NCBI GenBank assembly: GCA_041665545.1
Contig: JBAYIQ010000005.1
Span: 1-58,197 of the forward strand
Direction: 5' to 3'
Source of the DNA: Patescibacteria group bacterium
Lineage (GTDB): Bacteria > Patescibacteriota > Patescibacteriia > UBA1558 > GWA2-36-10
Length of the DNA stretch: 58,197 nucleotides
The notes beneath the pieces were generated by a model. It was not told the DNA's origin. It was given only the letters and a program-made list of their open reading frames with translations, and did not search any database. How positions within the stretch are numbered: the first letter of the stretch is position 1; each line of letters begins with the position of its first letter. The translations under genes were made by a program, and so were the position numbers. Of the stretch, positions 267 through 58,197 are shown piece by piece.

Positions 267-286
267 CTGTGATTGGAAAGACCGTG

Positions 287-538: not shown

Positions 539-592
539 TACTGACCTCCTCTCTTAGTTTTGAATTTCTTGGAAGAACCTATTAATAACGAT

Positions 593-621
593 AGCTTATC
601 GTCTAAAAAAACAAATGTCAA
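593..621 (-). promoter_or_regulatory. Putative sigma70-type promoter for the Cys-rich ORF
   Basis: Minus-strand TTGACA (616-621), 17-nt spacer, TAAGCT (593-598). The -10 is weaker than the other promoters in this window. Confidence 0.35.
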
Positions 622-641
622 TAAAAAAAACGCCGGCTGAA

Positions 642-682
642 GAACCGACCCGCGAGGTCGACGCGACCTCGCGGGTCGGTTC
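642..682. repeat. Perfect 19-bp GC-rich hairpin
   Basis: GAACCGACCCGCGAGGTCG, loop ACG, CGACCTCGCGGGTCGGTTC. It sits just upstream of the cassette promoter and is flanked by A8 and T4 runs. Confidence 0.8.
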
Positions 683-693
683 TTTTCACAAAA

Positions 694-4753: not shown

Positions 4754-6193
4754 ATGGCTACAGTAACATTTGAGGATTTAAGGGAAATACTAGCTGACAA
4801 CTATCCGGGTGAAGACATTGGTGTCATCATCAAGGCTTTTCATTTTGCTTCTGAAGCGCACAAAGGCCAAAAAAGAAACACTGGCGAGGACTATATTTAT
4901 CACGCGCTAGCCACGGCTTACAACCTAGCCAAGATGCGTATGGATATACCCTCTATCGCCGCCGGGCTCTTACATGATGTGCCAGAAGATACTGATTTTA
5001 CTTTTGAAGAAATAAAAAATAATTTTGGCTCAGAAATATATTATTTAGTAAAAGGCGTCACCAAGCTAGGAACTTTGAAATACAGAGGCCTGGAGCGCTA
5101 TGCTGAAAATTTACGCAAAATGTTTTTGGCCATGTCCAAAGATTTGCGCGTCATCATCATCAAGCTAGCCGACAGATTGCACAACATGGAAACCCTAGAA
5201 GGTGTGCGACCAGAAAAACGTTTGCGCATTGCCCAAGAAACCATGGAAATTTTTGCGCCTATTGCCAACCGCTTGGGAATGTTTCGCATCAAAATTGAAC
5301 TAGAAGATCTGGCCTTCCCCTATGTCTATCCCGAAGAATACAAATGGGTGTCTGAACTAGTGCAAGACCGCCTGAAGACCGAAAGCAAATATATTGAAAA
5401 AATAAAAAAAACTACTCAAAAAGATTTGGCTAGACATAATATACCCTACATAATCATCAAAGGGCGAGTCAAAAGCTTGTACGGCATTTACCAAAAAATG
5501 ATCCGCAAGAATAAAGATATCAATAAAGTTTATGACTTGATTGCCTTGAGAATTACAGTCAATGATATTCCTGATTGCTACTTGGTGCTTGGTATCATCC
5601 ACAAACGCTGGACGCCCTTGAAAGGCCGAGTCAAAGATTATATTGCTCAACCAAAACCCAATGGCTACCAGTCATTGCACACTTCAGTCTTTACCGAATT
5701 TGGCAAAGTAGCCGAATTCCAAATTCGCACGCGTGCTATGGATGACGAAGCCGAATATGGTGTGGCCGCTCACAGCCGTTATAAGGAAATTGGCATTTTG
5801 GGCAAAAGAAAAAAGCCACCCAAATGGCTACAAGATTTGATGGAGATTCAAAAAACTATTACTGACAATACTGAATTTATCAAACATATAAAAAATGATC
5901 TGTTTGCCAATCAAATTTTTGTCTTTACTCCCAAAGGCGATGTCATTGAGTTGCCAGAAAATTCTACTCCTTTGGATTTTGCTTATCATATCCACACTGA
6001 CATCGGCACCCAATGCATTGGCGCCAAAATCAACGAGCAGATTGCCTCTCTGGACACACCCTTGAAGTCTGGTGATGTGATTGAAATTTTGATCAACAAA
6101 AGCCGGAAGTATCCCAATCCTGATTGGCTGGATATTGTAGTCACTAATTTAGCAAAAAACAAAATCCGCAGTCAGTTGAAGAATAAGATGTAA
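4754..6193 (+). CDS. RelA/SpoT-homologue (p)ppGpp synthetase/hydrolase, short form
   Basis: 479 aa. Contains an HD hydrolase motif (LLHDVPEDT), a RelA_SpoT synthetase core (YIAQPKPNGYQSLHT) and a TGS-like region (IFVFTPKGDVIELP). The C-terminal ACT-type domain appears to be absent. Confidence 0.85.
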   Translation: MATVTFEDLREILADNYPGEDIGVIIKAFHFASEAHKGQKRNTGEDYIYHALATAYNLAKMRMDIPSIAAGLLHDVPEDTDFTFEEIKNNFGSEIYYLVKGVTKLGTLKYRGLERYAENLRKMFLAMSKDLRVIIIKLADRLHNMETLEGVRPEKRLRIAQETMEIFAPIANRLGMFRIKIELEDLAFPYVYPEEYKWVSELVQDRLKTESKYIEKIKKTTQKDLARHNIPYIIIKGRVKSLYGIYQKMIRKNKDINKVYDLIALRITVNDIPDCYLVLGIIHKRWTPLKGRVKDYIAQPKPNGYQSLHTSVFTEFGKVAEFQIRTRAMDDEAEYGVAAHSRYKEIGILGKRKKPPKWLQDLMEIQKTITDNTEFIKHIKNDLFANQIFVFTPKGDVIELPENSTPLDFAYHIHTDIGTQCIGAKINEQIASLDTPLKSGDVIEILINKSRKYPNPDWLDIVVTNLAKNKIRSQLKNKM

Positions 6194-6223
6194 AAAAAGA
6201 GACCCTATTTTAACCCGGGTCTC
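6192..6223 (-). terminator. Terminator of ORF 6250..6609, overlapping the stop codon of the RelA/SpoT homologue
   Basis: Stem GAGACCC (6199-6205) / GGGTCTC (6217-6223), followed on the minus strand by T7 (complement of 6192-6198). Confidence 0.55.
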
Positions 6224-6249
6224 ATAGAGAGGGTTGGCGGTTGACGCCA

Positions 6250-6609
6250 TCAAAGGAGAGCTCGCCCAGTAGTACGCATCGGTATCTTCCCGATCATTTG
6301 TGTCAGGAAGAAGAAGATCGTGAAGGAGATAATCAGTGGTACGCACATTTGAAAAGTGGATGTTATCGCCATCATATAGATGAGCAAAAAACAAGCGAGC
6401 GTAATGACGATCAGAGAGGTTAGTGCCGCGAAACAGAACCTCCACGACAACGTCGACAGAGCTATCCCCCAAAGCGTCCCGGTTGCTGTGCCAAAGAGGG
6501 CGAAGGTTGTGTAATTGCATATCACGTTGTCGTTGAACACGTCGATGAAAATGCCGACGATGGTCAGCGTCGCCAACAGACTCAGGATGATAAGCGCGAG
6601 CGTCTTCAT
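6250..6609 (-). CDS. Hypothetical polytopic membrane protein (119 aa) in a GC-rich cassette
   Basis: I took the start at MKTLALIILS... because AGGAG lies 7 nt upstream. There are about four hydrophobic helices. GC is higher than in the flanks. It is preferred over the alternative-frame ORF 6149..6640. Confidence 0.55.
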   Translation of the reverse strand: MKTLALIILSLLATLTIVGIFIDVFNDNVICNYTTFALFGTATGTLWGIALSTLSWRFCFAALTSLIVITLACFLLIYMMAITSTFQMCVPLIISFTIFFFLTQMIGKIPMRTTGRALL

Positions 6610-6673
6610 GGTAGTTCTCCTCATTTGAGGAACAAACCATAGGCTGAACTGCCTAATTTTTGGTTTTCAAAGT

Positions 6674-6702
6674 ATTATATCATATATAGTACATTTTGTC
6701 AA
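6674..6702 (-). promoter_or_regulatory. Consensus sigma70 promoter for ORF 6250..6609
   Basis: The minus strand reads TTGACA (6697-6702), exactly 17 nt, then TATAAT (6674-6679). Confidence 0.7.
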
Positions 6703-6740
6703 GCCAAACCTAAAAATAGCCATTTTTGGCTATTCGCACA

Positions 6741-12087: not shown

Positions 12088-12193
12088 CCCGTTAGAAATT
12101 CTCTTTACACTTTTTTCTGCCATAAAATTAAATATACCCTATTATTTTACTGATGATTATACGGCCTGCTAAAATAAATTTCTAACGGGACGC
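12084..12193. repeat. ~110-bp inverted-repeat intergenic element, copy B
   Basis: Arms are GCATCCCGTTAGAAATT (12084-12100) and AATTTCTAACGGGACGC (12177-12193), with one mismatch. The left arm contains the xth ATG. Confidence 0.8.
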
Positions 12194-12382
12194 ATAAAAA
12201 TTATTTTACTTTTTGTTGTCGCACTGTCAAACTACGCCGAATTATAAAATTCGAGGGGGTGCGGTAAGCAGGCCGTCCTTTTCTATTGCCAACTTTATGG
12301 TGCTGTTTCATGTTATAATTATAGCACATCATTGAATAATGACTCTATTACAGTAGCCAAGCGGGTTAATGAGATAGTGGCA

Positions 12383-12542: not shown

Positions 12543-12629
12543 GCCGAAGTGGCGGAACTGGCAGACGCGCTGGACTCAAAATCCAGTGACCGCAAGGTCG
12601 TGGAGGTTCAAGTCCTCTCTTCGGTACCA
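12543..12629 (+). tRNA. tRNA-Leu(CAA), class II, CCA encoded
   Basis: Cloverleaf folded by hand. Acceptor GCCGAAG/CTTCGGT, anticodon loop CTCAAAA, long variable arm, T-loop TTCAAGT. Confidence 0.9.
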
Positions 12630-12784
12630 CTCGATTCGCCTTTTGCTTCGCAAAAGTCTCACTCGCGGTCTACGGTGCTTATCGCACCTCCGACCATTTC
12701 ACAATAAATAATCGAGTGCCCTGCCATTCGGCCCTGAGGGGCCTCAGGCCCTGAACGGGAGCGAACGAAGTGAGTCGAAGGGCA
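12630..12784 (+). ncRNA. Conserved structured RNA directly 3' of CCA, copy 1
   Basis: Long-range stem CACTCGATT / AATCGAGTG that includes C75-A76 of the tRNA. Hairpin CTTTTGC-TTC-GCAAAAG. Hairpin GGTC..GGTGC-TTATC-GCACC..GACC. A further GC-rich hairpin has a GAGCGAACGAAGTGAGTCGA core. Confidence 0.6.
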
Positions 12785-13155: not shown

Positions 13156-13233
13156 GGCAGGGTAGCTCAGTTTGGTTAGAGCGTGGGACTCATAAGCCCG
13201 AGGTCGTGGGTTCGATCCCCACCCCTGCTACCA
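13156..13233 (+). tRNA. tRNA with CAU anticodon (elongator Met or Ile2; not resolvable by eye)
   Basis: 78 nt. Acceptor GGCAGGG/CCCTGCT, anticodon loop CTCATAA. Positions 31:39 are an A-G mismatch. Confidence 0.8.
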
Positions 13234-13342
13234 CTCGATTCGCCTTTTGCTCCGCAAAAGTCTCACTCGTGGTCTCCGGTGCTTATCGCACCTCCGACCA
13301 TTCTCCATATCATGAATCGAGTGTTCCGAGCGAAGTCGAGGG
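13234..13342 (+). ncRNA. Conserved structured RNA directly 3' of CCA, copy 2
   Basis: Near-identical to copy 1 across the core (CTCGATTCGCCTTTTGCTCCGCAAAAGTCTCACTCGTGGTCTCCGGTGCTTATCGCACCTCCGACCATT...GAATCGAGTG), plus a GAGCGAAGTCGA hairpin. Confidence 0.6.
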
Positions 13343-14117: not shown

Positions 14118-14703
14118 ACATTTACATCGTGTATGTGGTATACTTATTGATGTATGCCAGATACAAGAAAATATGTCGATCGTGCTGAGTATTTAAAACA
14201 AGCAGTTGCTAAACGTCGTAAAGATGTGAAAATAATGCTTGTAAAATATAAGGGCGGTAAGTGTAAGACTTGTGGCTATAAAAAATCCGTAGAAGCTCTT
14301 GAGTTCCATCATATAAATGAAAGAAAAAAGAAGTTTGGAATTTCTGGGCAAGGATTAACTAGATCTTGGAAAAGTGTAAAGCAGGAAGCTGATAAATGCA
14401 TCTTGCTTTGCGCAAATTGCCACAGGGAATTGCACGCAAAATAGTGCAGCTTCCTCAAGTAATTGAGGTTGACAAACGGGGTGAACTGTCCCGCAAAACG
14501 GGAGCCCGCCAAAGGCGGTGCCGGGAAGCCTAAGTCTAAAAGATATGGTAATCCGCAGCCAAGCCCTGAACCAGATGGTTCAGGGAAGGTTCAGAGACTA
14601 TCCGAAAGGAGTAGGCAGTATTTACTAGCCGAAGCGCCCCGCATCCTAAAAAATTATAGGATGATGATATAGTCCATCCCTTTAGGAAACTTAAGGATCG
14701 ATG
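14118..14703 (+). mobile_element. Group I intron carrying an HNH ORF
   Basis: The 5' exon ends in U and the intron ends in G. Core strings CCGCAGCCAAGCCC (14553-14566), GTTCAGAGACTA (14589-14600) and GATATAGTCC (14666-14675) match the conserved catalytic-core blocks of Tetrahymena/Azoarcus-type introns as I remember them. I did not confidently identify P1 or the internal guide sequence by eye, so boundaries are accurate to within a few nt. Confidence 0.75.
14154..14444 (+). CDS. HNH homing-endonuclease-like protein (96 aa), intron-encoded
   Basis: CKTCGY...LEFHHINE...LLCANCHRELH is an HNH motif with two CxxC pairs. The ORF lies wholly inside the intron. Confidence 0.8.
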   Translation: MPDTRKYVDRAEYLKQAVAKRRKDVKIMLVKYKGGKCKTCGYKKSVEALEFHHINERKKKFGISGQGLTRSWKSVKQEADKCILLCANCHRELHAK

Positions 14704-14747
14704 TAACCAATTGGTCGTGGGTTCAAATCCCTCCCTCGGAGCCATTA

Positions 14748-14778: not shown

Positions 14779-14907
14779 AATCTTGGCAACACCTCCTTTT
14801 AGTCGGAAAAATTATTTATTCATTCCAAATTTTATGCCGAAGCCAAATAAAAAACCATCCTGAGTGTAAGTCGAAGGATGATTTTTTATTTTTAGTCGAT
14901 AAGTAAT

Positions 14908-20031: not shown

Positions 20032-21818
20032 TAGCGCTGTAGTTTAGTTATTTCCTTATTTAATAAATTAATTTTATGGGTAATTTGGTCTTGAGTTATT
20101 GTGTCATTTTTTAGTTCGGCCTGACGCAATTGCTCAATCAAAAGCTGACGGCGCTCTTGGAATCTGTTGCTTTTCAATCTTTCCAGAGAAACATTGAAAT
20201 TGCTGTCTAGCTCCTGACCCGATAAATCAGCCATGTTTTGCTCAGCTGACATTAGTAGACGAATATACTGCTGTTTGGCCTCGACTTCCAGTTCGGGCCA
20301 ATCAATAAAATTATCTAAATTATGTTGCTTAGTATAATAGATTATTACCTTTCTGTAAAGATCTAGCAAGTCCGCTTCCATCATTTCTGGCTCCAGCTCA
20401 TTGACCAGGCGCTCCAGATAATTGTTTCGAAAAAATACAATTCCTAATAATTCTTCACTCAAAAAACTGACACTTGGTTTTTTGATGGCTATGACTTTCT
20501 TTTCGGGGCGAACATTTTCCAAGAAACTGCTGACTTGCTTGAGATCACTTTGCAAAATATCTAAAGGCAAATGCAACTTGTCAGCCAATAATTGCAAATA
20601 ATGAGATTGTTCAACCGCGCTTTTTAAATATTTTATAATCGGTAATAATTTTTGCACGGCTATTTTTTTGTGATCAGCCCGATTCAAGTCCACACCAGAT
20701 AAAATTCGCTGAAAATAATAATCCATCACTTGTATAGAATCACGCACCAATTTCAGCCATAAATTTTTATCGCTCTTTACTATGTCAGCTGGATCTTGAT
20801 TTTGTGGCAAGACCAAAATTTTCATATTCATTTCTTGAGCCCAGGCCAAAGTAATACTGCGCAAAGCGGCATTGGAGCCAGCTGTGTCACCATCAAAAGC
20901 CAAAATAACATTGTTGGTATAGCGCTTGATCAACTTCAAGTGATCAATGGTTAAAGCTGTGCCAGAAACTGCCACGGTATTAGTAGTGCCAGCTTGCTGA
21001 CTCAAAATCGCGTCAAGATTGCCTTCCACAATAATCAAATAATTTTTTTGCTTGATGGTGGCTTTGGCCAAGTGCCAACCATACAGTATTTTGCTTTTGT
21101 CATAAATATTGGTTTGCGGACTATTGATATACTTGCCACCAAAATCTTCGTCATGATAAACAATACCCTGCAAAGTGCGCGAAGTAAAAGCCACCACTCG
21201 CCCAGCTGTATCAAATATTGGAAACATCAGTCGCTTGCGAAAGCGATCCACGTAGCCACTGCCATCTTTTTTCTTTACTGAAATGCCAGCTTGAAAAATA
21301 TCGGTATCCGAAAATTTCTTGGCTTTCAAATACTGCAGAGCTTCATCCCAAGACTCGGTACTTAAGCCCAGACCCCATTTTTTTATACTGTCCGTAGTCA
21401 AACCCCGAGACAAAAGATAGTCCAAAACTTTGGCGCTGGTTTCATTTTTATCAAAAAGATTGCTCTGATATTTTTCCGCAATCAAATGATTTATTTCAAA
21501 CAAAAGATTAAAATTTTCCTTGGGTAATGATTGATAGCCAGCCAAAGAAACATTGGCTTTCTCGGCCAACAGCTTGATGGCTTCCGAAAAACTCAAACCC
21601 TCATATTCTTGAATAAAAGTAAAAATATCTCCGCCCTTGCCACAGCCAAAACAATGCCAAATTTGCTTTTCCCGAGAAACCATAAAACTGGCGGTCTTTT
21701 CATTATGAAAGGGACAACGCGCTTTGAGGTTGGAGCCAGTCGAATTCAAGGTGATATATGTGGAGATAATGTCGGCTACATCCAACTTGGCTTTTATTTC
21801 TTCAACCGGGTTCTGCAT
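20031..21818 (-). CDS. dnaG: DNA primase
   Basis: 595 aa. Zinc ribbon [11 protein letters not shown]...CFGCGKGGD and TOPRIM ([18 protein letters not shown]). The stop overlaps the rpoD start (TAATG). Confidence 0.95.
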
Positions 21819-21927
21819 CCCGTTAGAAATTTAAATAATTAAACATATAACTAAAAAAATAAAATTTATCAATAAACCCATTATTTTTTCCACTAAACCT
21901 AGTTTAATGAATTTCTAACGGGATGCA
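21814..21927. repeat. ~110-bp inverted-repeat intergenic element, copy A
   Basis: Perfect 18-bp arms TGCATCCCGTTAGAAATT (21814-21831) and AATTTCTAACGGGATGCA (21910-21927). The left arm contains the dnaG ATG (21816-21818). Confidence 0.85.
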
Positions 21928-21959
21928 TAAGCTTATATTAGGTGAAATACGATTTTTAG

Positions 21960-21998
21960 TCAAAAAGAAAGGCGCTCGAGAGGGGTTTCTCGAGCGCC
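21960..21998 (-). terminator. Terminator of ORF 22028..22444
   Basis: 10-bp stem GGCGCTCGAG / CTCGAGCGCC, followed on the minus strand by TTTCTTTTT. Confidence 0.7.
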
Positions 21999-22027
21999 GT
22001 GGATTGTTGTCGGCTACTGGCCCGCGC

Positions 22028-22444
22028 CTAGGCGTGGACCTGGTAGACCGAATTGCCCCGAGCCGACTTCCAGCTGTCCGCCGATCCGTCGCGGACCAGC
22101 GCTTCGAGGTTGGACCTCACCAACTGGAACAGAAAGAAGTTCCGCTTCTCCCACCGATAGAGGCGCCGCATGACCATGCCAGCGGTCATGGGATGCCTCG
22201 CCCTCTGCATGAGCACGAGCACGCGCTCGCTCATGGGCTGATCGACCATGATCGGCGTGAACTTGACCTCGATGGCCACACCGTCCAGTTCTCCGACGGC
22301 GAGGATCGACGCCGGACGACGATCGCGCGCCCTGCGGATGAACCTCTCGGCCACGGGGAAGACCTTCCCAGCGAAGATCGCGGGCACAGTGATCGAAAGC
22401 ATGATGATGGCGATGATGAGCACGAAAATCTCGATCGGATTCAT
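22028..22444 (-). CDS. Hypothetical membrane-anchored protein (138 aa), possibly with a winged-helix-like C-terminal part
   Basis: GGAGG lies 4 nt upstream of the ATG. There is one N-terminal TM helix (IEIFVLIIAIIMLSITVPAIFA) and the coding sequence is GC-rich. The wHTH idea rests only on the look of ERVLVLMQRARHPMTAGMVMRRLY and is weak. Confidence 0.5.
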   Translation of the reverse strand: MNPIEIFVLIIAIIMLSITVPAIFAGKVFPVAERFIRRARDRRPASILAVGELDGVAIEVKFTPIMVDQPMSERVLVLMQRARHPMTAGMVMRRLYRWEKRNFFLFQLVRSNLEALVRDGSADSWKSARGNSVYQVHA

Positions 22445-22552
22445 GACGCCTCCAATGGCTTGGGACCAGGAACAGTGACCTATATCACATTCATTGGCCT
22501 TTTATGGCCAAAATGCTTCGAAATTAATGCTTGATGAACTGTAAAACAGTAT

Positions 22553-22581
22553 ATCATAGCACAAAAAATAAAAGTTGTCAA
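22553..22581 (-). promoter_or_regulatory. Sigma70-type promoter for ORF 22028..22444
   Basis: Minus strand: TTGACA (22576-22581), 17 nt, TATGAT (22553-22558). Confidence 0.6.
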
Positions 22582-22596
22582 GCCACGGTTAAAAAT

Positions 22597-22627
22597 AACC
22601 TTCGAGGTTGCCATAACCTCGAAGGTT
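22597..22627. promoter_or_regulatory. Perfect 13-bp palindrome between the divergent promoters
   Basis: AACCTTCGAGGTT, spacer GCCAT, AACCTCGAAGGTT. It is extended by CACGG / CCGTG outer pairing. Confidence 0.5.
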
Positions 22628-22678
22628 GGCCGTGTCTACTAGTATTGCACTGATTTGTTGAACCCACGCTACAAACAC

Positions 22679-22707
22679 TTGACAAAATATTATTATTATG
22701 ATAGTAT
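22679..22707 (+). promoter_or_regulatory. Sigma70-type (extended -10) promoter for the NfeD-like/flotillin pair
   Basis: TTGACA (22679-22684), 17 nt ending in TGA, then TAGTAT (22702-22707). Confidence 0.5.
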
Positions 22708-22869
22708 AAAATGTTTTGACCAAATAGCAAAAAATTGAGCTTTTGGTTAAACCAAAAGTTCTTTGAAATGTCATACATCACTCGTAAAAACAACTAATAA
22801 GATCGAGTTTTCTGTCCACAAATCCTATGGCCACAGTGTCAGTGCAACCACGTAACGAAAGGAGTTTCG

Positions 22870-23460
22870 ATGGAACACCAGCAGACCTTCTGGCACATGC
22901 TGGGGAACGACGTGGGGATGATGACGTTCGCCGTTCTGGGCTTCATTGGCGGAGTGTTCACTTTGATCACTCTGGCCTTCGGCCACGGCGACCACAACAT
23001 CGACCACGACTTCAGCGCGGGCGACCACGACTTCAGCGCGGGCGACCACGACAACAACGCCGGCCCGAACGTGTTCTCGTTCCGCAACATCATGCTCTTC
23101 GTCACCGGCTTCGGTGGAATCGGCATGCTGGCCAAGTACCATGGCGCAAGCTTCATTGTGAGCAGCCTCTGGGGCGCTTTCTCTGGCTTCATCATGGCAT
23201 TCGTCGGCTACCTGATCTACCGCGCCCTGTACAAGAGCCAGGCGACCTCGCACATCGACAACTGTTCGCTGTGCGGTTCGATCGCTCTGGTCGAACAGGC
23301 CATCGTCGCTAACGGCATGGGTATCATCGTGGCCGGAGGCGAGATTGGCCACCTCGTTCGCCTCCAAGCCAGAACGAAGGAAGGAACCCCGGTCGCAAAC
23401 GGCCGACAGGTCCGCATCCTGAATATCAACGGGACCGAAGCTCTGGTCGAGGCCCTCTAA
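22870..23460 (+). CDS. YqiJ/NfeD-like membrane protein
   Basis: 196 aa with AAAGGAG upstream. Architecture: TM helix, acidic His/Asp repeat (HGDHNIDHDFSAGDHDFSAGDHD), further TM helices and a beta-rich C-terminal tail. This matches NfeD/YqiJ partners of SPFH proteins, and the gene sits directly upstream of a flotillin gene. Confidence 0.65.
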   Translation: MEHQQTFWHMLGNDVGMMTFAVLGFIGGVFTLITLAFGHGDHNIDHDFSAGDHDFSAGDHDNNAGPNVFSFRNIMLFVTGFGGIGMLAKYHGASFIVSSLWGAFSGFIMAFVGYLIYRALYKSQATSHIDNCSLCGSIALVEQAIVANGMGIIVAGGEIGHLVRLQARTKEGTPVANGRQVRILNINGTEALVEAL

Positions 23461-23503
23461 TCCCTGCTCCAACACACCACCGTCTTCCCAAAGGAGTATC
23501 AAG

Positions 23504-25228
23504 ATGGAACAGTCCGCACACTTCATGCAGTACCTGATCCCCGCGATCATCCTGTTCGTGCTGATCGCCTTTCTGGGTGTGATCCGCCTGGCGGCCAAGA
23601 ACTACATCAAGGTGGCCCCGAACGAGGTGGCCATCATCAGCGGCAGCCGTCACAAGACGACGGTCACGCTGCCCGGCAAGGAGAACGAGCCCCCCACTAC
23701 GGTGGTGCGCGGATACAAGCTGGTCACCGGTGGCGCCTTCTTCAAGGTGCCGATCCGCGATCGGGTCGAGATCATGAAGCTCAATCTGATCCAGATCATT
23801 GTCCAGGTCACCAACGTGCCCGCCCTCAACGGCGTGCGCGTGACGGTCAAGGGCATCGCCAACATCAAGATCCTCTCCGACCAGGCCTCCCTGGCTCTGG
23901 CCGTGGAGCGCTTCCTGGGGAACAACCTCAGCGAAGTGGAACGTGTGGCCAATCAGAACCTGGAGTCCAACCTCCGCGCCGTCGTCGGCACGATGACGGT
24001 CGAGGATCTGATCCGGGACCGGGCACAGCTCCAGGCCCAGATCCTCCGGGAAGCGGTCAGCGACATGTCCAAGATGGGTCTCGGTGTGGACCTGATGAAC
24101 GTCCAGGAGATCACGGACGAGAACGGGTACATCGAGGCCCTGGGCATGGCGCGAACCGCCGAGGTCAAGCGCGACGCAACCATCGGCAAAGCCGAGGCCC
24201 AGCGTGACGCCGACATCCGTTCCGCGGAAGCCGGACGGCTGGGCGAGACGGCCAAGGCCGTGGCTGCACAAGCCATCTCGGATGCGCAGAAGGCCAAGGA
24301 TATCCGCGTTGCCGAGAACGAGAGTCTGGTCAAGGCACAGCAGGCCAGGATCCCGATCATTGCGGAGCAGGCTCGAGCCGAGGAACAGAAGGCGCTCAAC
24401 ATCAAGACCGTCGAGGCCGATCGTGCCAAGACCGAAGCCGAGATCGCCCTGCAGCAAGCGGCTCAGCGCCGGCACGAGGCCGAGCTGAACGCAACTACGA
24501 TCATTCGGGCCACGAAGGACAAGGAGGCCCTAGTCATCGCTGCCGAGGCCAAGGCCCTGGCGGCGGAACGGGAAGGCGAAGCCTACCGCATCCAGCACGA
24601 GATGGAAGGCAAAGGTGACCAGGCCAAGCTGACTGCTGTGGCTCAGGGACGCAAGGAAGCGGCGGCGGCTACCCAGACCGAACTGGAAGCCGCGGCTGCC
24701 GGTAAGAAGGCCGGACTGCTGGCTGACGCCGAGGGTGTCAAGCAGAACGGTCTGGCCAGGGCTGCCGGAGTCGAAGCCGTTGGTGTGGCTGAGGCCACGG
24801 CTTCGGCCAAGAAGGCTGAGGCTTACACCCTGCTTGATGCCAAGGGCATCATGCTCATGCTGCTCCAGCTGTCGCCGGACGTCATCAAGGCGCTCGGCGT
24901 GGCTGTCGGCGACGCCATCAAGCCGTCGGCAGATGCCATCGGACAGGGCCTGGGTAACATCAAGGAACTGCGCATGGTGGATCTGGGTGGCGGTTCGGCT
25001 GGCGGGGCTGGCGGGGGCAATGTCCTCAATCAGTTCGTCAACCAGCCCATCCAGACCTTGTATGGCCTGATCGAACGGATGAAGGCCACGGGCATGGCAC
25101 CGGCGTTCATGAAGCTGGCCAAGGAGAAGCTCGGGCTGGATCTCACGGACGTCTTCGCTGGTGCTCCTACCCAGACGACGTCGGACGACACGCACAAGAA
25201 GGGTGGTGATGACACGGCTACGGCTTAG
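23504..25228 (+). CDS. Flotillin-like SPFH/band-7 protein (YqiK/FloT-like)
   Basis: 574 aa with AAGGAG 7 nt upstream. N-terminal membrane hairpin, an SPFH core (NYIKVAPNEVAIISG...GIANIKI) and a long Ala/Glu/Lys/Arg-rich coiled-coil region. Confidence 0.85.
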   Translation: MEQSAHFMQYLIPAIILFVLIAFLGVIRLAAKNYIKVAPNEVAIISGSRHKTTVTLPGKENEPPTTVVRGYKLVTGGAFFKVPIRDRVEIMKLNLIQIIVQVTNVPALNGVRVTVKGIANIKILSDQASLALAVERFLGNNLSEVERVANQNLESNLRAVVGTMTVEDLIRDRAQLQAQILREAVSDMSKMGLGVDLMNVQEITDENGYIEALGMARTAEVKRDATIGKAEAQRDADIRSAEAGRLGETAKAVAAQAISDAQKAKDIRVAENESLVKAQQARIPIIAEQARAEEQKALNIKTVEADRAKTEAEIALQQAAQRRHEAELNATTIIRATKDKEALVIAAEAKALAAEREGEAYRIQHEMEGKGDQAKLTAVAQGRKEAAAATQTELEAAAAGKKAGLLADAEGVKQNGLARAAGVEAVGVAEATASAKKAEAYTLLDAKGIMLMLLQLSPDVIKALGVAVGDAIKPSADAIGQGLGNIKELRMVDLGGGSAGGAGGGNVLNQFVNQPIQTLYGLIERMKATGMAPAFMKLAKEKLGLDLTDVFAGAPTQTTSDDTHKKGGDDTATA

Positions 25229-25280
25229 TAGAACTGACTGTCTCTGACGGTCTGAACTCTGAGCCAAAGCTTTCATAGAG

Positions 25281-25352
25281 GGGAGGCGGTGCTACACAGC
25301 ACCGCCTCCCACTCCAAAACAAGAGGGATCTTTCGTAACCCCTCTTTTTTTA
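25281..25352 (+). terminator. Tandem hairpins/terminator after the flotillin gene
   Basis: 13-bp stem GGGAGGCGGTGCT-ACAC-AGCACCGCCTCCC, then AGAGGG...CCCTCT followed by a T-run. Confidence 0.65.
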
Positions 25353-45605: not shown

Positions 45606-46079
45606 TTAATCATCTTCTTCCTCATCATCATTGCCAACCACATTAGTATTTTGATTTGTGTTAGCTGGTGGTATGGCCACCGCATCTGTAGAAACAGTTG
45701 ATCCGATTATACCGATCTTGTAACTAGCCAAAATATTGCTAGCATTAGCCGAATGACCCTGAGTAGCAAAGGCAGCGGCAATATCGCCTCCGCAATATTT
45801 AATAATGTTTGATTGCCCACCGGGATGTGATTTTATATATGATGTCACATTATAGACATTATTGCCAGCTGTCACCCAGCAGTCAGAAGCCATATTGTGT
45901 TGGGTTACTATAGCAGTAGTTAGAGTATATGTCACTGGCGCGATATTGGCAGGATTGTTGGTTAATAAATTTCCTAGGTTGGTTAAACTTCCATTATTTT
46001 GTCTTACTAAACTATTAACAAAAAAAATGCTGACTGCTCCCCAAAAGATAAATACCGCTATAATTATTATTTTATTCAT
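45606..46079 (-). CDS. Membrane-anchored cytochrome b5-like haem-binding domain protein
   Basis: 157 aa. N-terminal TM helix, HNMASDCWVTAGNNVYNVTSYIKSHPGG (the b5-type HPGG motif) and an acidic C-terminus. Confidence 0.65.
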   Translation of the reverse strand: MNKIIIIAVFIFWGAVSIFFVNSLVRQNNGSLTNLGNLLTNNPANIAPVTYTLTTAIVTQHNMASDCWVTAGNNVYNVTSYIKSHPGGQSNIIKYCGGDIAAAFATQGHSANASNILASYKIGIIGSTVSTDAVAIPPANTNQNTNVVGNDDEEEDD

Positions 46080-46187
46080 CCGGTTAGAAATTTAAATAAT
46101 TAAACTTTTTATAACTAAAGTAAAATTTTGCTAAATAATTTTTATACATATTTCTAAATATTATCCCGTGAATTTCTAACGGGATGA
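46076..46187. repeat. ~110-bp inverted-repeat intergenic element, copy C
   Basis: Arms TCATCCGGTTAGAAATT (46076-46092) and AATTTCTAACGGGATGA (46171-46187), with one mismatch. The left arm contains the ATG of ORF 45606..46079. About 45 nt of the interior is shared with copy A. Confidence 0.85.
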
Positions 46188-46196
46188 ATATATTTA

Positions 46197-47513
46197 TTAT
46201 AACATTTTAAAAGCCTCGGGATTTATATTTTTTTTCGGAATACCTGTTCTTAGCAAAGCACTGGTCAAAGCCGACATCATGCCTACTGGCCCACAAATAT
46301 AAAAATGGCAAGCCCTAATATCAGCAACAAATTTTCCTAACTTTTCTAAATCAAAGCGCCCTTCTTTATCGGATATATAAATATTCAATTTAAATTGCGG
46401 ATAAGTTGTTTGGGCCTGCTGAAAAATATCAAGTGCCACCAAATCTTTTTCCGAAGTCACTATATAAAATAAATCCACAACACCGGCGCCAGTTTTTTTG
46501 ACACCCAAGGACTGAGCCAAACTCACAAAAGGAGTGATGCCAATGCCTCCTGCCAGCCAAATTTGATGATAATTGAGATCTAAGTTGTCGCCAAAACTAC
46601 CATAAGGTCCATCAAGCACGGCCACACTACCAACCTTGAGTTTTGCCAGCTTGGCCGTATAAGCACCAAGATTCTTGGCCATGATAGTCAAGCTGTGATC
46701 TGGATAAATTTGAGCCACTGAAAAAGGATGTTCCTCTCCTTTTTTTATATCAGGAAAGCTGACAAAAATAAATTGCCCTGGCTTGACGTCAATTATTTTT
46801 TTATCTGGCTGAAACGTGATGCTGACTATACTAGTACCTAGTTGTTCAACTTTACTCACTACAAAACGTCTAGATTTTATAGCATAACCAACCAAAAATA
46901 ATCTAACTAAATAGAGCAAAACACTAATTGATATTAACAAAATATAATAAATGGCTAACAACGGAATGCTTTTTATATCGCTGTCTATTAGTAGTGCGTG
47001 AACACCGCCAATCATCAATGGTACGGCCAAAATACTATGCAAAGATTTTAATTTTTCATATTGCAGGCGCCAAAAAAAAGTCATCAACACTAAAGCCATA
47101 AATACGAGAAGAGAAATATAGCCAAAAAGATAAGCGGTTTGAGACCAATTAGTAAAAATACCAAAAGCCGCTTGATTAGAAACTGACAAACGGCTGGCTG
47201 CCAAAAATAAAGGATGCAAAATTATAAAAGTAAAGGAAATTGTACCGAGCCAACGATGAATATTGATGACTTTTGGCAAACCATAAAAAAGCTTGTCCAG
47301 CCAGACAAAACGAGCAGACATCAGAAGCGCTAAAGAAAAAATCGATAAGCCCAACAGCCCAGATAATTTACCTAAAGTGGAAAACAAAACTGGCCAAGGA
47401 TAAAACGATCGGCTAAAAGGTACGTCTGTATACAAAATAAAAAGCGGTACTATCACAATTAGTGCCAGAATTAACAAGCTTATGTATGATTTTATGGTTT
47501 TTTGATTAACCAT
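46197..47513 (-). CDS. NOX/ferric-reductase-like flavocytochrome (FRD membrane domain plus FAD/NAD(P)H domain)
   Basis: 438 aa. Two His pairs with 13- and 12-residue spacing in TM helices (HRWLGTISFTFIILH and HSILAVPLMIGGVH). Also HPFSV (FAD), GGIGITPF (NAD(P)H) and YICGP. Confidence 0.75.
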   Translation of the reverse strand: MVNQKTIKSYISLLILALIVIVPLFILYTDVPFSRSFYPWPVLFSTLGKLSGLLGLSIFSLALLMSARFVWLDKLFYGLPKVINIHRWLGTISFTFIILHPLFLAASRLSVSNQAAFGIFTNWSQTAYLFGYISLLVFMALVLMTFFWRLQYEKLKSLHSILAVPLMIGGVHALLIDSDIKSIPLLAIYYILLISISVLLYLVRLFLVGYAIKSRRFVVSKVEQLGTSIVSITFQPDKKIIDVKPGQFIFVSFPDIKKGEEHPFSVAQIYPDHSLTIMAKNLGAYTAKLAKLKVGSVAVLDGPYGSFGDNLDLNYHQIWLAGGIGITPFVSLAQSLGVKKTGAGVVDLFYIVTSEKDLVALDIFQQAQTTYPQFKLNIYISDKEGRFDLEKLGKFVADIRACHFYICGPVGMMSALTSALLRTGIPKKNINPEAFKML

Positions 47514-47597: not shown

Positions 47598-47718
47598 ATG
47601 TCTCTCGACTCGCTACGCTCGCTCAAGACACTCGATTCATGATACGAAAATGGTCGTAGGTGCTGAAAAGCACCGGAGACCACGAGTGAGTTTTTTGCTA
47701 AGCAAAAAACGAATCGAG
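47598..47718 (-). ncRNA. Conserved structured RNA directly 3' of CCA, copy 3
   Basis: The minus strand reads CTCGATTCGTTTTTTGCTTAGCAAAAAACTCACTCGTGGTCTCCGGTGCTTTTCAGCACCTACGACCATT...GAATCGAGTG, plus a GAGCGAGCGTAGCGAGTCGA hairpin. It shows compensatory changes relative to copies 1 and 2. Confidence 0.6.
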
Positions 47719-47808
47719 TGGCGGAGAGGACAGGATTTGAACCTGCGAGGGATTTTACTCCCTACTCGCTTTCCAAGCGAGCGCACTAGACCACTATGCG
47801 ACCTCTCC
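47719..47808 (-). tRNA. tRNA-Ser(GGA), class II, CCA encoded
   Basis: 90-nt hand-folded cloverleaf. Acceptor GGAGAGG/CCTCTCC, anticodon loop TTGGAAA and a long variable arm. Confidence 0.9.
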
Positions 47809-57250: not shown

Positions 57251-57526
57251 TTATTCGATCACCGCTAATAAATCGTCATGATTTAATATTTTGTGTTCCA
57301 CGCCATCTATCTTAATTTCTGAACCGCCGTATTCAGAAAAAACAACTTTTTGGCCAAGAACCAAATTTAATTTTACAATTTTTTCTCCACTGCCAATGGC
57401 AATGATTTCACCTTCTTGACGAGACTCTTTGTTGACTGTCTCTGGCAAAATAATACCCGCCTTGGTAGTTTCTTCTTTGGGTAATGGTTTGACAATCACC
57501 CTATCACCTAATGGTTTTAACTTCAT
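57251..57526 (-). CDS. groES: Co-chaperonin GroES
   Basis: 91 aa. MKLKPLGDRVIVKP...GIILPE. Confidence 0.95.
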   Translation of the reverse strand: MKLKPLGDRVIVKPLPKEETTKAGIILPETVNKESRQEGEIIAIGSGEKIVKLNLVLGQKVVFSEYGGSEIKIDGVEHKILNHDDLLAVIE

Positions 57527-57548
57527 ATTTTTTTATTAATTAATCAAA

Positions 57549-57575
57549 TTAGCACTCTCTATTTTAGAGTGCTAA
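57549..57575 (-). promoter_or_regulatory. CIRCE operator (HrcA binding site)
   Basis: TTAGCACTC-N9-GAGTGCTAA, a perfect match to the CIRCE consensus. It lies 23 nt upstream of the groES ATG. Confidence 0.9.
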
Positions 57576-57589
57576 TGATTTTTTGTCAA
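57561..57589 (-). promoter_or_regulatory. groESL sigma70 promoter overlapping CIRCE
   Basis: Minus strand: TTGACA (57584-57589), 17 nt, TAAAAT (57561-57566). Confidence 0.7.
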
Positions 57590-57612
57590 GATCACATGTG
57601 CCAAATAATATA

Positions 57613-57667
57613 GAAGGTCGCGCCAGCGACCTGAGCGTAGGCGAGCTAAGCTCGCCGAAGTCGAAGG
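57613..57667. repeat. REP-like double hairpin with a GAGCGTAG...GAAGTCGAAGG core
   Basis: GGTCGC-GCCA-GCGACC (57616-57631) and GGCGAGC-TAA-GCTCGCC (57640-57656). It is immediately followed by TTGACA (57668-57673). Confidence 0.75.
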
Positions 57668-57741
57668 TTGACAAAAACCAAGTAAAATGATTTCATTTCA
57701 ACTATAGTGAACAAAACCACATACCATTTGGGAGGTGAAAC

Positions 57742-57987
57742 ATGCGCGCCATCTACCACAAGAATCGTCTGATCAACGAACTCCATCGTCTCTTCTACGC
57801 CACCTGCGTCTGGGTCATGGACCTGCCCGACAATGTCCCCAAATTCCTGAGATACTCAAAGATGGAGCTCAAGGAGAGAGCTTCGAACACGTTTCACATT
57901 CTGCTCTTTTTCGGCGCCTATGCTCTGCTCGGCTTGATCGACCTCTTCCGTGGCCTGCGATACCGCCTTCGAGACAAGGTGCTGTGA
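57742..57987 (+). CDS. Hypothetical tail-anchored small protein (81 aa) in a GC-rich cassette
   Basis: GGGAGGTG has its GGAGG core 6 nt upstream of the ATG. There is one C-terminal hydrophobic helix (FHILLFFGAYALLGLIDLF), GC-rich coding sequence and a dedicated terminator. Confidence 0.55.
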   Translation: MRAIYHKNRLINELHRLFYATCVWVMDLPDNVPKFLRYSKMELKERASNTFHILLFFGAYALLGLIDLFRGLRYRLRDKVL

Positions 57988-58004
57988 TGCTCTTTCGACT
58001 TCGT

Positions 58005-58046
58005 GCCCTAGCTACCGATTACACACGGCGGCTGGGGCTTTTTTTT
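58005..58046 (+). terminator. Rho-independent terminator of ORF 57742..57987
   Basis: 13-bp stem (one mismatch, two G-U pairs) between 58005-58017 and 58026-58038, followed by T8. Confidence 0.65.
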
Positions 58047-58047
58047 C

Positions 58048-58071
58048 GACCCGCCGGGTGACCCGCCGGGT
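58048..58071. repeat. Tandem duplicated palindromic 12-mer
   Basis: GACCCGCCGGGT occurs twice in tandem. Each unit is self-complementary (ACCCG-C-CGGGT). Confidence 0.8.
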
Positions 58072-58197
58072 CGTCGCAAAAGAATCAAGAGCTTGGAATC
58101 AGCTGGACAGGTACTAGGTAGTTAATACCCATGTGCGTACGCTCATTGTTGTAATAACTTAAATACTTAATTAAAGCTTCTTGTAAGCTAACAAGAT

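Follow-up and report, generated by a model that had tools for sequence, protein, structure and literature searches.

An 81-codon orphan gene occupies an accessory-gene hotspot beside groESL in Patescibacteria

Hotspots of horizontal gene transfer that lack mobile elements, and whose content is replaced through recombination at the core genes on either side, have been described (Oliveira et al. 2017, PMC5635113), and competence genes have been reported to be common in Patescibacteria (PMC12455944). Here, a Patescibacteria contig stretch of 58,197 nt (the whole of the DNA analysed, hereafter the window) was examined and the interval beside its groESL promoter was compared with those of related lineages, designated A to F. 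The results showed that this interval contains an accessory 81-codon orphan gene, and that the horizontal-transfer hotspot in which it lies has no recombinase linked to it. Because related genomes carry different GC-rich cassettes in the slot, it was regarded as an ordinary gene-exchange hotspot. The explanation as a whole, in which a single-gene unit sits in an accessory hotspot whose content is exchanged by recombination without a dedicated recombinase, is considered probable. The features of the locus and of its sister cassettes are listed in Table 1.

Table 1. Features of the groES slot and of the sister cassettes, in window coordinates
Feature	Position	Strand	Details
groES promoter and CIRCE	57550-57589	-	CIRCE inverted repeat 57550-57576 overlaps -10; TTGACA 57589-57584, 17-nt spacer, TAAAAT
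GC-rich double hairpin	57613-57667		Stems 57615-57632 and 57640-57656, within motif GAGCGTAG..GAAGTCGAAGG; from folding
Predicted sigma-70-type promoter	57668-57696	+	-35 TTGACA 57668-57673, 17-nt spacer, TG 57688-57689, -10 TTTCAT 57691-57696; read from sequence
AT-rich leader	57697-57741	+	GGAGG ribosome site 57731-57735, 6 nt 5' of ATG 57742
81-codon ORF	57742-57987	+	Basic, two-helix, possibly membrane-associated orphan protein; GC 0.54, GC3 0.75
3' UTR and intrinsic terminator	57988-58046	+	Stem 58005-58038, T8 58039-58046; from RNA folding
Tandem near-palindrome pair GACCCGCCGGGT	58048-58071		Upstream edge of the slot's next (second) cassette, outside the 81-aa unit
rve-type (DDE) transposase gene, 3' end	58085-58197	-	Stop 58085-58087, runs off contig end; Pfam rve_2 E = 4.6e-5
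Sister cassette	243-684	-	21-bp perfect hairpin and T-run 632-684, TTGACA 618-613, ribosome site, terminator 243-268
Sister cassette, relA/spoT–parB interval	6192-6735	-	Hairpin and T-run 6714-6735; 12/12 consensus promoter with TG, 6702-6674
Sister cassette beside dnaG	21971-22627	-	AACCTTCGAGGTT hairpin and T-run 22597-22627, promoter 22585-22557, terminator 21971-21998
NfeD–flotillin sister cassette	22678-25350	+	Promoter and 190-nt leader, NfeD-like 22870-23460, flotillin/SPFH 23504-25228, terminators 25281-25350
Six genes with GC3 of at least 0.68	287-538, 6250-6612, 22028-22444, 22870-23460, 23504-25228, 57742-57987		

As read from its sequence, the segment 57668-58046 constitutes an autonomous single-gene unit with a predicted promoter, a leader, a strong ribosome site, the ORF and a predicted terminator. 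A first-pass annotation of the window had described a self-contained unit beside the groESL promoter/CIRCE region, and all of the parts it listed were found where it had placed them, including TTGACA, the GGAGG core before the ATG, the GC-rich 81-aa ORF and a terminator with T8. The same annotation had called the -10 element here the least convincing of the set of cassettes. The hexamer TTTCAT is indeed a poor match, but this judgement needs correction, as the conserved TG that precedes the weak hexamer suggests an extended -10. TTGACA, the spacing and TGnTTnnAT are kept in all of the five lineages A-E, and a TTGACA-17-TGnTAnnAT template is used by other cassettes. The leader region (57698-57760) showed no significant fold (z = 0.18). 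The ribosome site is conserved in lineages A, B, C and D and degraded in E, and the leader of lineage D is unrelated to that of the other lineages. RNA folding showed that the terminator stem consists of 9 + 3 pairs around one mismatch (-22 kcal/mol, z = -3.5); a consensus terminator scan had missed it because of this internal mismatch, and folding confirmed it. The 3'-UTR/terminator segment is 92-95% identical in lineages B, C and D, with wobble pairs of the terminator changed to Watson-Crick pairs in C and D, and lineage E has a different, perfect 9-bp stem. The ATG, the stop and a terminator are conserved in all five lineages. The neighbouring groES promoter scores 11/12, carries an 11-bp inverted repeat and is directed away from the cassette; the groES promoter/CIRCE segment is 85-100% identical in lineages B-E. 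Two further reading frames were rejected: an overlapping 108-aa GTG ORF (57735-58061) is open in the window only and not conserved, and the mini-ORF ATGATTTCATTTCAACTATAG in the promoter, a candidate leader peptide, lacks a ribosome site and shares sequence with the -10.

In lineages B, C, D and F, the slot is flanked by groEL-groES on one side and by Wzy_C, followed by a 314-aa gene and uvrA, on the other. The flanks in lineage E are a trace of groES and Wzy_C, and in the window the contig ends before Wzy_C is reached. The slot holds the 81-aa unit alone in lineage C, the 81-aa unit in lineages B, D and E together with a second cassette of 2-4 GC-rich ORFs (among them 150-aa and 111-aa ORFs in B), and a GC-rich NfeD–flotillin operon with no 81-aa unit in the more distant lineage F. 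In the window it holds the 81-aa unit and an IS, which replaces the second-cassette promoter seen in B, D and E; the IS junction is also present in the independent Logan assembly L009. Among the genes called (Pfam) in or beside the slot in the six lineages, no integrase or self-mobile element was found, and the sole mobility gene was the rve fragment of the window. The first-pass annotation had suggested testing whether the cassettes are variably present among strains. For the 81-aa cassette this was not the case: it occupies the same position in all five close lineages that were found and adjoins groES/CIRCE in four of them, the fifth contig (E) showing a mere trace of groES, and its dS of 0.30-0.69 matches the 0.27-0.50 of groEL (lineages A-D). 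The shared position in five lineages and the matching dS suggest that the unit has been inherited with the chromosome since the common ancestor of A-E. Synteny in all relatives combined with ordinary composition had been named as an outcome that would speak against the cassette idea; the synteny was found among close relatives, whereas the composition is not ordinary.

The window contains exactly six credible genes with GC3 of 0.68 or more, compared with a long-ORF median of 0.40. These form five transcription units at four places, each with TTGACA, a GGAGG-like site and a GC hairpin terminator, so the recurrence of this layout reported by the first-pass annotation was confirmed. Besides the 81-codon ORF and the NfeD–flotillin genes, they encode an 83-aa Cys-rich protein that matches no family (GC3 0.71, cassette 243-684), a 120-aa multi-helix hydrophobic protein (GC3 0.68, cassette 6192-6735) and a 138-aa protein (GC3 0.86, cassette 21971-22627), the last of which keeps its position beside dnaG in the relatives examined. 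A common origin had been proposed for the small accessory genes; neither a common donor nor a common origin of the encoded proteins could be shown, and the small proteins are unrelated orphans. The companion proposal of a common acquisition route was supported in one sense, as the slots are interchangeable and flanked by core genes, and the groES and dnaG slots have junction motifs in common. A ParB metagenome scan for the relA–parB and DprA slots of relatives returned one close relative only, on a 1-kb contig.

Movement between slots was seen for the NfeD–flotillin operon. In the window it adjoins dnaG, 35 kb from the groES slot; it lies in the dnaG slot in genome L102 as well, in the groES slot in lineage F and beside dnaJ in L103, and the dnaG slot lacks it in L100, L098 and apparently L096. 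Its promoter and leader are homologous between the window (dnaG slot) and F (groES slot), and the homology begins at the -35 box. The insert in the window is a 2.8-kb replacement-type insertion that replaces 125 nt of the empty site, and a search for flanking direct or terminal repeats around it found none.

The 81-aa cassette itself is a mosaic of non-nested modules, with some breakpoints inside its ORF. The upstream segment groups the lineages as ABD|C|E, the leader and N-terminal half as ABCE|D, the C-terminal tail as AB|CDE and the terminator as ABCD|E, contrary to groEL, which places B and D closest. Furthermore, the dS of ORF-b of the second cassette between B and D is 1.20, compared with 0.27 for groEL. 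The window also encodes DprA. These patterns suggest that the units are most likely exchanged when DNA that has been taken up recombines, homologously or illegitimately, with the conserved flanks and the conserved promoter and terminator modules, and natural transformation with recombination at the conserved flanks is the leading candidate for the gene-swap route. In the proposed sequence of events, the clade would keep GC-rich promoter-to-terminator gene units in a few slots bounded by core genes; the 81-aa unit would already have been in the groES slot in the A-E ancestor and would later have been partially overwritten, module by module, with no dedicated recombinase linked to the cassettes.

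The elements at the edges of the unit were also analysed. The two GC hairpins reported upstream of the promoter are present, and as RNA they fold to -27.4 kcal/mol (z = -3.6; none of 200 shuffled sequences folded as well). However, their assignment to the unit was not upheld: because the double hairpin lies between two divergent -35 boxes, it is outside both predicted transcripts, and although it is carried by lineages A, B and D, it is replaced by a different 14-bp hairpin in C and by an unrelated 80-nt GC segment in E. The label 'REP-like' applies in part. The short core motif GAGCG..(A/T)GTCGA(A/G)GG is dispersed (three occurrences in the window compared with 0.005 expected, a near-variant at 14850-14877, and further occurrences at two distant loci), whereas the complete 55-nt element remains single-copy across the window and about 1 Mb of related DNA. 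Likewise, the tandem 12-mer noted downstream is present but does not belong to the 81-aa unit, since the one copy of GACCCGCCGGGT in lineage B directly abuts the TTGACA of the second cassette; the copy in D is degenerate, and C lacks the sequence. The GACCCGCCGGGT palindrome occurs twice upstream of the promoter of a 127-aa cassette in the dnaG slot of relatives, and all occurrences of ACCCGSCGGGT in the 1.04 Mb of DNA searched, where chance alone would give about 0.1, are at junctions of the groES and dnaG slots. An IS target-site duplication was rejected as the source of the tandem 12-mer, as both copies are on the same side of the IS and the copy in lineage B has no IS. The AACCTTCGAGGTT hairpin, too, occurs at both the groES and dnaG slots, and it is an ordinary terminator in one distant genome. 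The upstream GC hairpins are probably exchangeable junction elements, either leftover terminators of neighbours or short dispersed palindromes, and the 12-mer pair is probably a junction element of the next unit, which the IS has cut off in this genome.

The 81-aa family is a new orphan protein family confined to one narrow Patescibacteria clade. Searches of 5.8e9 and 1.84e9 proteins turned up no homologues but P0002, P0003, P0004 and P0008. To this set the profile search of the 1.84e9 representative proteins contributed just two further true homologues; its three other matches were repeat proteins and were discarded as spurious. Searches of Pfam, PHROGs, PADLOC, NCBIfam and PDB sequences with the protein and its homologues returned nothing usable, a Cas8a match (E = 0.016) being noise, and IMG/VR scans for the 81-aa family and for flotillin found no relatives. 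AlphaFold2 (with three, then five sequences) predicted two helices at low confidence (pLDDT 58 and 60). The C-terminal transmembrane helix claimed by the first-pass annotation is matched by a Kyte-Doolittle 19-residue peak at residues 47-69, of 1.53-1.99 in four lineages and of about 1.5-2.0 over all five homologues, the highest peak of lineage D being in the N-terminal helix. However, D/R residues interrupt the hydrophobic stretch in lineages B and C, and each flank carries a net positive charge. The helix is thus plausible, and hydropathy suggests that the protein may be membrane-associated.

The 81-codon ORF is, by its conservation, a genuine gene with predicted transcription and translation, and several other readings of the locus were weighed against this one. 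It might be a decaying relic, that is, a once-imported gene without function that drifts near neutrality and whose promoter and terminator look conserved through recent divergence. The ORF indeed evolves 20-40 times faster than groEL at the protein level (dN 0.135-0.37 versus 0.003-0.011 in lineages A-D), its dN/dS of about 0.5 (0.45-0.55) points to weak constraint, its C-terminal half is indistinguishable from neutral evolution (p = 0.18-0.27), its N-terminal half has been replaced in lineage D, and it matches no family or fold; lineage E has lost its ribosome site along with most of its excess of GC (GC3 0.53), a state that could be early decay. However, the frame is open at 81/81/81/81/78 codons in the five related lineages with no indel among the 81-codon forms; the chance of an open frame surviving the A-C divergence alone is about 10%. 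In addition, pS exceeds pN across the ORF (p = 0.02-0.03 per pair), the N-terminal half is the more constrained (pN 0.09-0.13 versus pS 0.23-0.32), and the start codon and strong ribosome site are kept in A, B, C and D. A relic was thus judged unlikely. Still less likely is a non-coding RNA gene in which the ORF is incidental. The leader and the 3'-UTR/terminator are 77-95% conserved compared with 58-82% for the second half of the ORF, in favour of such a gene, but what is conserved includes the ribosome site, the ATG, the stop position and the codon-position pattern, no significant structure was found outside the terminator (z = 0.18 for 57698-57760), and an Rfam search of 57500-58197 at gathering and permissive thresholds gave sub-threshold noise only. 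An assembly chimera or contamination, with foreign GC-rich reads joined to an AT-rich contig, can hardly be credited in spite of the sharp switch in composition and the IS fragments at both contig ends: at least eight assemblies, which come from different projects (JGI, NCBI, ENA, Logan) and represent five diverged lineages, show the same junctions, AT-rich sequence gives way to GC-rich sequence precisely at the start codon, downstream of a host-type promoter, and the synonymous divergence of the ORF tracks that of the flanking groEL.

Two other readings concern what the unit does and how it moves. Its promoter, terminator and deviant GC, which resemble those of phage morons (PMC3594210), would suit an addiction or defence module, either a small membrane toxin comparable to type I toxins or a lysis or exclusion gene derived from a phage, comparable to prophage morons. 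The small basic protein with one hydrophobic helix and an Arg/Lys-rich tail, its fast evolution, as in conflict genes, and the adjoining IS agree with this reading; there is, however, no phage gene nearby, no match in PHROGs or PADLOC and no relative in IMG/VR, no partner gene is evident, and a consensus scan of 57700-58050 gave no convincing antisense promoter. An 81-aa protein with a long polar N-terminal helix is also atypical of type I toxins, and this reading was given little weight. The edge hairpins and palindromes might instead be recombination sites of a site-specific system that moves cassettes as integrons do or by means of a REP-type transposase, since GC-rich palindromes lie at the junctions, ACCCGSCGGGT is limited to two slot types, the AACCTTCGAGGTT hairpin occurs at both slots and homology breaks at the promoter edge. 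Such a system is equally improbable: no integrase or Y1 transposase was found near the slots in the 58-kb window or in the slot neighbourhoods of six lineages, three unrelated elements occupy the same junction, some breakpoints are inside the ORF, insertion is by replacement with no target duplication, the AACCTTCGAGGTT hairpin serves as an ordinary terminator elsewhere, and each cassette has its own promoter, unlike integron cassettes.

For the preferred reading, a single-gene unit exchanged by recombination in an accessory hotspot, the composition of the cassettes remains a puzzle. The GC3 of the 81-codon ORF is 0.75, compared with 0.32 for groES, 0.40 for groEL and a host median of 0.40, a composition that looks foreign in this AT-rich genome. 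The flotillin cassette has a GC3 of 0.74-0.88 in four hosts, compared with 0.22-0.47 for the hosts themselves. The flotillin copies share 61-72% protein identity with that of the window, which suggests an old age, and in the databases each is most similar to the others. The search for a donor of the GC-rich DNA found none, and the flotillins most similar to that of the window are themselves GC-rich genes in AT-rich hosts; a simple history of recent import and subsequent drift to host composition does not agree well with this. It is possible, though doubtful, that AT-rich Patescibacteria share a persistently GC-rich pool of cassettes, mostly envelope or membrane genes, which hop among groES, dnaG and dnaJ slots without a recombinase of their own and whose GC is actively maintained. 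Such upkeep might come from selection, from gene conversion with a GC bias at recombination hotspots, or from repeated re-seeding by a GC-rich reservoir or element that has not been seen. If real, old GC-rich cassettes in AT-rich genomes would bear on amelioration and biased gene conversion in these lineages.

For annotation, the 81-codon gene is genuine, and neither an assembly artefact nor a structured RNA. The slot beside groESL provides a compact exchange hotspot that is easy to recognise, in bacteria that are ultra-small and presumably depend on hosts. A number of the genes exchanged there appear to be related to the envelope (flotillin/NfeD, small hydrophobic proteins), a kind expected to matter for host attachment or phage resistance, and the slots offer a direct test of gene gain and swap in streamlined genomes without obvious mobile elements.

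Compared with described systems, the 81-aa protein resembles small membrane proteins of the tail-anchored or single-pass type, among them type I toxins, in its short length, its one plausible hydrophobic helix near the C-terminus and its basic tail, but it differs from them in its 50-residue polar basic N-terminal helix, in the charges inside the hydrophobic stretch (in some lineages), in having both flanks positive and in having no evident antisense partner. Like REP/BIME palindromes, the double hairpin is a short, GC-rich, imperfect intergenic palindrome whose core motif recurs in the window; however, the full element is single-copy, no RAYT gene was seen in the 58-kb contig, and several of the window's 'upstream hairpins' are terminator-like stem-loops with T-runs. 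The window units share with integron cassettes the arrays of short single-gene units, the border palindromes and the shuffling between locations. Unlike them, they have no IntI among the genes called around the slot in six lineages, carry their own promoters, have heterogeneous borders with some breakpoints inside genes, and end in a plain terminator hairpin and T-run, with no attC-type site evident (core motifs judged by eye). Like the 81-aa unit with its predicted promoter and terminator, the phage morons of HK97/HK022 (PMC3594210) are independent transcription units of deviant GC that lie between conserved genes and are patchy among relatives, but the 81-aa unit is flanked by chromosomal groESL and Wzy_C, with no prophage nearby and no PHROG or IMG/VR relatives. 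As in the transfer hotspots without mobile elements (Oliveira et al. 2017, PMC5635113), the groES slot has the same bounding core genes, fast accessory turnover, no integrase, alleles more diverged than the flanks and a host that encodes DNA-uptake functions. It differs from those hotspots in being very small (0.4-2.8 kb, 1-5 genes), in consisting of discrete promoter-to-terminator units that are uniformly much GC-richer than the host, and in that these units reappear in other slots of related genomes.

The window is one contig of a metagenome-assembled genome from Patescibacteria, and JGI 3300037810 contains an identical contig. The first-pass annotation had placed a double hairpin, TTGACA, GGAGG, an 81-aa ORF, a terminator and a 12-mer pair beside groES, and all of them were found there. 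The NCBI name of the product is 'hypothetical protein WCV69_03665 [Patescibacteria group bacterium]'. The claimed recurrence of this layout also held: six credible GC-rich genes, forming five transcription units at four places in the window, have a GC3 of 0.68-0.86 compared to a long-ORF median of 0.40. On either side the contig may end within a fragment of a transposase gene, and insertion sequence (IS) copies probably broke the assembly there.

Coordinates of the 81-aa unit, its flanks and other elements (window positions unless a related locus, L, is named)
Feature	Position	Strand	Remark
groES	57251-57526	minus	left of cassette, with groEL
CIRCE repeat			left of cassette; overlaps -10 of groES promoter
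groES -35 box	57589-57584
Two GC hairpins	57613-57667		fold -27.4 kcal/mol, z = -3.6
-35 box TTGACA	57668-57673		read from sequence
GGAGG ribosome site	57731-57735		6 nt ahead of ATG
81-codon ORF	57742-57987	plus	ATG at 57742
Terminator stem	58005-58038		T8 after; z = -3.5
12-mer GACCCGCCGGGT	58048-58071		tandem, two copies
rve-type transposase gene, C-terminus	58085-58197	minus	stop codon 13 nt past 12-mer pair; extends beyond contig end
Left-end fragment	1-108		35-aa C-terminal fragment, IS1595-like by eye; no Pfam match
Second cassette	L001 10300-11290; L012 8290-9300; L011 590-2300		promoter and leader conserved, ORF content strongly divergent
NfeD-flotillin operon	22678-25350; L014 9130-11830; L102 1200-3700; L103 120-2650
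tRNA-end repeat, 74-84 nt	12625-12698; 13229-13302; 47665-47748 (reverse strand)		76-96% identical
Group I intron	14473-14696		Rfam, 81 bits
tRNA-like 3' half	14715-14744		after intron; no tRNA called by ARAGORN; with the intron, probably an intron-containing tRNA gene
AT-rich element, about 125 nt	21811-21936; 46072-46197; 12175-12203; L010 5694-5830; L012 7670-7810		bounded by terminal inverted repeats (CCCGTTAGAAATTT...AAATTTCTAACGGG); resembles miniature transposable elements
Giant ORF, 4143 aa	30314-42745	minus	about 400-nt repeats inside it at 32.1-34.7 kb, families D1, D3, D4, D11

The 81-aa gene was recovered in five lineages of related Patescibacteria (A-E, A being the window). Where contigs extend that far, the gene order is groEL, groES, CIRCE, GC-rich element, TTGACA and leader, followed by ORF, terminator, a variable segment and a Wzy_C-family gene; on the lineage E contig, groES is represented by its last bases alone. 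The variable segment is empty in C, and B, D and E carry a second cassette, in which a TTGACA-17-TAATAT promoter of its own and a conserved leader precede two to four more GC-rich ORFs. The window IS starts at the expected position of that promoter. In lineage E, three paralogous ORFs of the second cassette each stand behind an identical 25-nt translation-initiation block, GCAGAAAGTGTAGGTGTyWrAGATG. C and D carry an insertion of a related AT-rich element (CCCCGTTAAATAA...TTATTTAACGGGG), which separates CIRCE from the groES start codon. Variable presence was seen in the contents of the groES slot (groES to Wzy_C), the more distant lineage F (groEL 85% identical) lacking the gene, but not within A-E, where the gene is kept.

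Contents of the groES slot and segment identity of each lineage to the window sequence as reference
Lineage	Locus	Source	Contents	Upstream GC element	-35 to ribosome site	Codons 1-40	Codons 41-81	3' UTR + terminator
A	window	JGI 3300037810, NCBI MAG, Logan	81-aa unit, then IS; contig stops before Wzy_C
B	L001	JGI 3300037487	81-aa unit + second cassette (150-aa, 111-aa ORFs)	0.92	0.91	0.88	0.82	0.95
C	L010	GTDB MAG CALMZN010000002.1	solely 81-aa unit	0.31	0.82	0.83	0.58	0.92
D	L012	Logan SRR30503913	78-aa unit + second cassette (156-aa, 112-aa ORFs)	0.79	0.50	0.38	0.60	0.92
E	L011	Logan SRR23086375	81-aa unit + second cassette, <=4 ORFs	0.35	0.77	0.62	0.63	0.68
F	L014, L015	JGI 3300029288, ENA	NfeD-like + flotillin operon, without 81-aa gene

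Homologue searches (5.8 billion proteins by word index, 1.84 billion representatives by full profile) returned only four other homologues, three of 81 residues and one of 78. Among the three closest lineages dN/dS was 0.45-0.55, with an excess of synonymous over non-synonymous differences (one-sided Fisher p = 0.02-0.03 per pair); constraint lay mostly within the first 40 codons, and the second half was indistinguishable from neutral evolution. No alternative reading frame was open across the relatives. As judged from these alignments, the ORF is a real, weakly constrained gene. Its near-neutral decay is a serious minority view, though an improbable one, and a non-coding RNA is unlikely because ribosome site, start, stop and codon pattern are all conserved. 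Synonymous divergence of the ORF (0.30-0.69) was similar to that of adjacent groEL (0.27-0.50), so the gene has been inherited along with the chromosome ever since these lineages last shared an ancestor; non-synonymous divergence (0.135-0.37) was 20-40 times that of groEL, and the protein is evolving very fast.

The protein had no match in Pfam, PHROGs, PADLOC, NCBIfam or PDB sequences, and AlphaFold2 models it, with low confidence (pLDDT 58-60), as a pair of long helices. It had been described as tail-anchored. Residues 47-69 are indeed hydrophobic in four of the five homologues (19-residue Kyte-Doolittle score 1.5-2.0), but Asp or Arg interrupts the stretch in some lineages, the flanks on both sides are net positive, and the top peak in lineage D is the N-terminal helix instead, leaving a tail anchor as a possibility. 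A toxin or phage moron would match the small size, hydropathy and fast evolution of the protein and has no support beyond these.

The -10 hexamer TTTCAT is weak, as had been judged at first pass, though a TG two bases 5' of it makes an extended -10, and TTGACA-17-TGnTTnnAT is kept in all five lineages with the gene. The template TTGACA-17-TGnTAnnAT is common to the other cassettes and may be no more than the usual strong promoter of the host. The divergent promoters of the 22-25 kb island (22543-22582 and 22678-22717) form a 40-nt inverted repeat, 70% complementary, and that of the island's 138-aa gene resembles the promoter at 6673-6721 (71% over 49 nt); a single module may thus have been copied to give the cassette promoters. 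Composition switches from AT-rich to GC-rich at the start codon, the promoter and leader before it being AT-rich and host-type. GC3 of the gene is 0.72-0.78 in A-C, 0.62 in D and 0.53 in E, and the simple picture of a recently imported gene that drifts towards the composition of its host agrees with these values. The flotillin cassette fits that picture poorly: flotillin GC3 is 0.74-0.88 in four lineages whose host genes have 0.22-0.47, and the copies share merely 61-72% protein identity with the window's, their nearest database relatives being each other. No GC-rich donor of the cassettes was found.

The double hairpin lies between the -35 boxes of groES and the cassette, so that it precedes each promoter and neither predicted transcript includes it. 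A, B and D carry it; in its place C has a 14-bp perfect hairpin (AACCTTCGAGGTTG...) and E an unrelated 80-nt GC segment. The arms of the C-type hairpin are the same as those at window 22597-22627, 5' of the 138-aa gene promoter, and in a distant Patescibacteria locus this hairpin is a gene's ordinary intrinsic terminator. Other window cassettes have terminator-like hairpins and T-runs directly upstream of their -35 boxes. The description as REP-like stood for the core GAGCG..(A/T)GTCGA(A/G)GG, of which the window has three copies (0.005 expected) as well as a near-variant at 14850-14877, and which is also present in two distant loci, but not for the entire 55-nt element, which is single-copy. 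We read the upstream hairpins as exchangeable junction elements, either terminators left behind by earlier neighbours or short palindromes that are dispersed, and they may insulate the units. The 12-mer pair had been wrongly assigned to the 81-aa unit: a single copy adjoins the second cassette's TTGACA in B, and the 12-mer is degenerate in D and absent from C. Its palindrome, ACCCGSCGGGT, recurs twice 5' of a 127-aa cassette promoter in the dnaG slot (DUF5671 to dnaG) of relatives, and the rest of the 1.04 Mb of Patescibacteria DNA that was retrieved does not contain it (about 0.1 expected by chance). The 12-mer, given this distribution, belongs to cassette junctions. The tRNA-end repeats begin in the last bases of the Leu-CAA, Met-CAT and Ser-GGA genes, extend downstream and are followed by GC-rich GAGCGAAGTCGAGGG-type hairpin motifs.

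Segment identities showed that the 81-aa cassette is a mosaic with non-nested module types. The C-terminal tail has two forms, FRGLRYxLRDKVL (A, B) and WxWLxxxxxNxxL (C, D, E), despite B and D being closest by groEL. Between B and D, the 111/112-aa protein of the second cassette shares 52% identity, and its gene has a dS of 1.20 compared to 0.27 for groEL. In that second cassette, D has a remnant of B's C-terminal coding sequence past its own stop codon.

In lineage F the operon in the groES slot (GC 0.59-0.68, host about 0.40) has its homologue in the 22.7-25.3 kb island of the window, at 76% and about 70% protein identity; the two leader sequences are also clear homologues, from the -35 box onwards. 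The window's DUF5671-dnaG interval holds the 138-aa gene and NfeD-flotillin; that of L100 and L098, and apparently L096, holds solely the 138-aa homologue. The operon is in the dnaG slot of L102, with flotillin split in two, and beside dnaJ (tRNA-dnaJ slot) in L103. Each cassette is thus a discrete unit, and the cassettes sit in, and shift among, a few slots between core genes. Over four lineages the operon was seen in three slots (groES-Wzy_C, dnaG-DUF5671 twice, tRNA-dnaJ), two of which adjoin chaperone genes. The 'empty' dnaG slot (L100 7180-7270, also L098 7750-7840) contains about 55 nt of AT-rich DNA bounded by inverted copies of ACCCGCCGGGTT and AACCCGGCGGGT, which could be a tiny inverted-repeat-bounded element or a pair of small terminators.

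An assembly chimera is excluded by identical junctions across many independent assemblies of diverged lineages. A hairpin-directed site-specific system is disfavoured, since the junction elements are heterogeneous, breakpoints fall within genes and a recombinase is absent; no integrase was found in or near the groES slot of any lineage. The window's NfeD-flotillin insertion replaced 125 nt of the empty site, and no repeats were found flanking it. Turnover of the cassettes would proceed through recombination at the core genes on either side, and not through a dedicated element. The original observation is confirmed and its interpretation supported in part.

What merits attention is the clean cassette architecture, the shifting of sister cassettes from slot to slot in ultra-small bacteria and a GC-richness that persists unexplained. 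Competence genes are reported to be common in Patescibacteria, as are hundreds of genomic islands (PMC12455944), and DprA is encoded within the window. Hotspots that lack mobile elements have been described whose contents are replaced through recombination at the adjoining core genes, above all in transformable species (PMC5635113), and the locus appears to match these. It consists of an orphan small gene in a horizontal-transfer hotspot of compact size, and loci of this kind are known.
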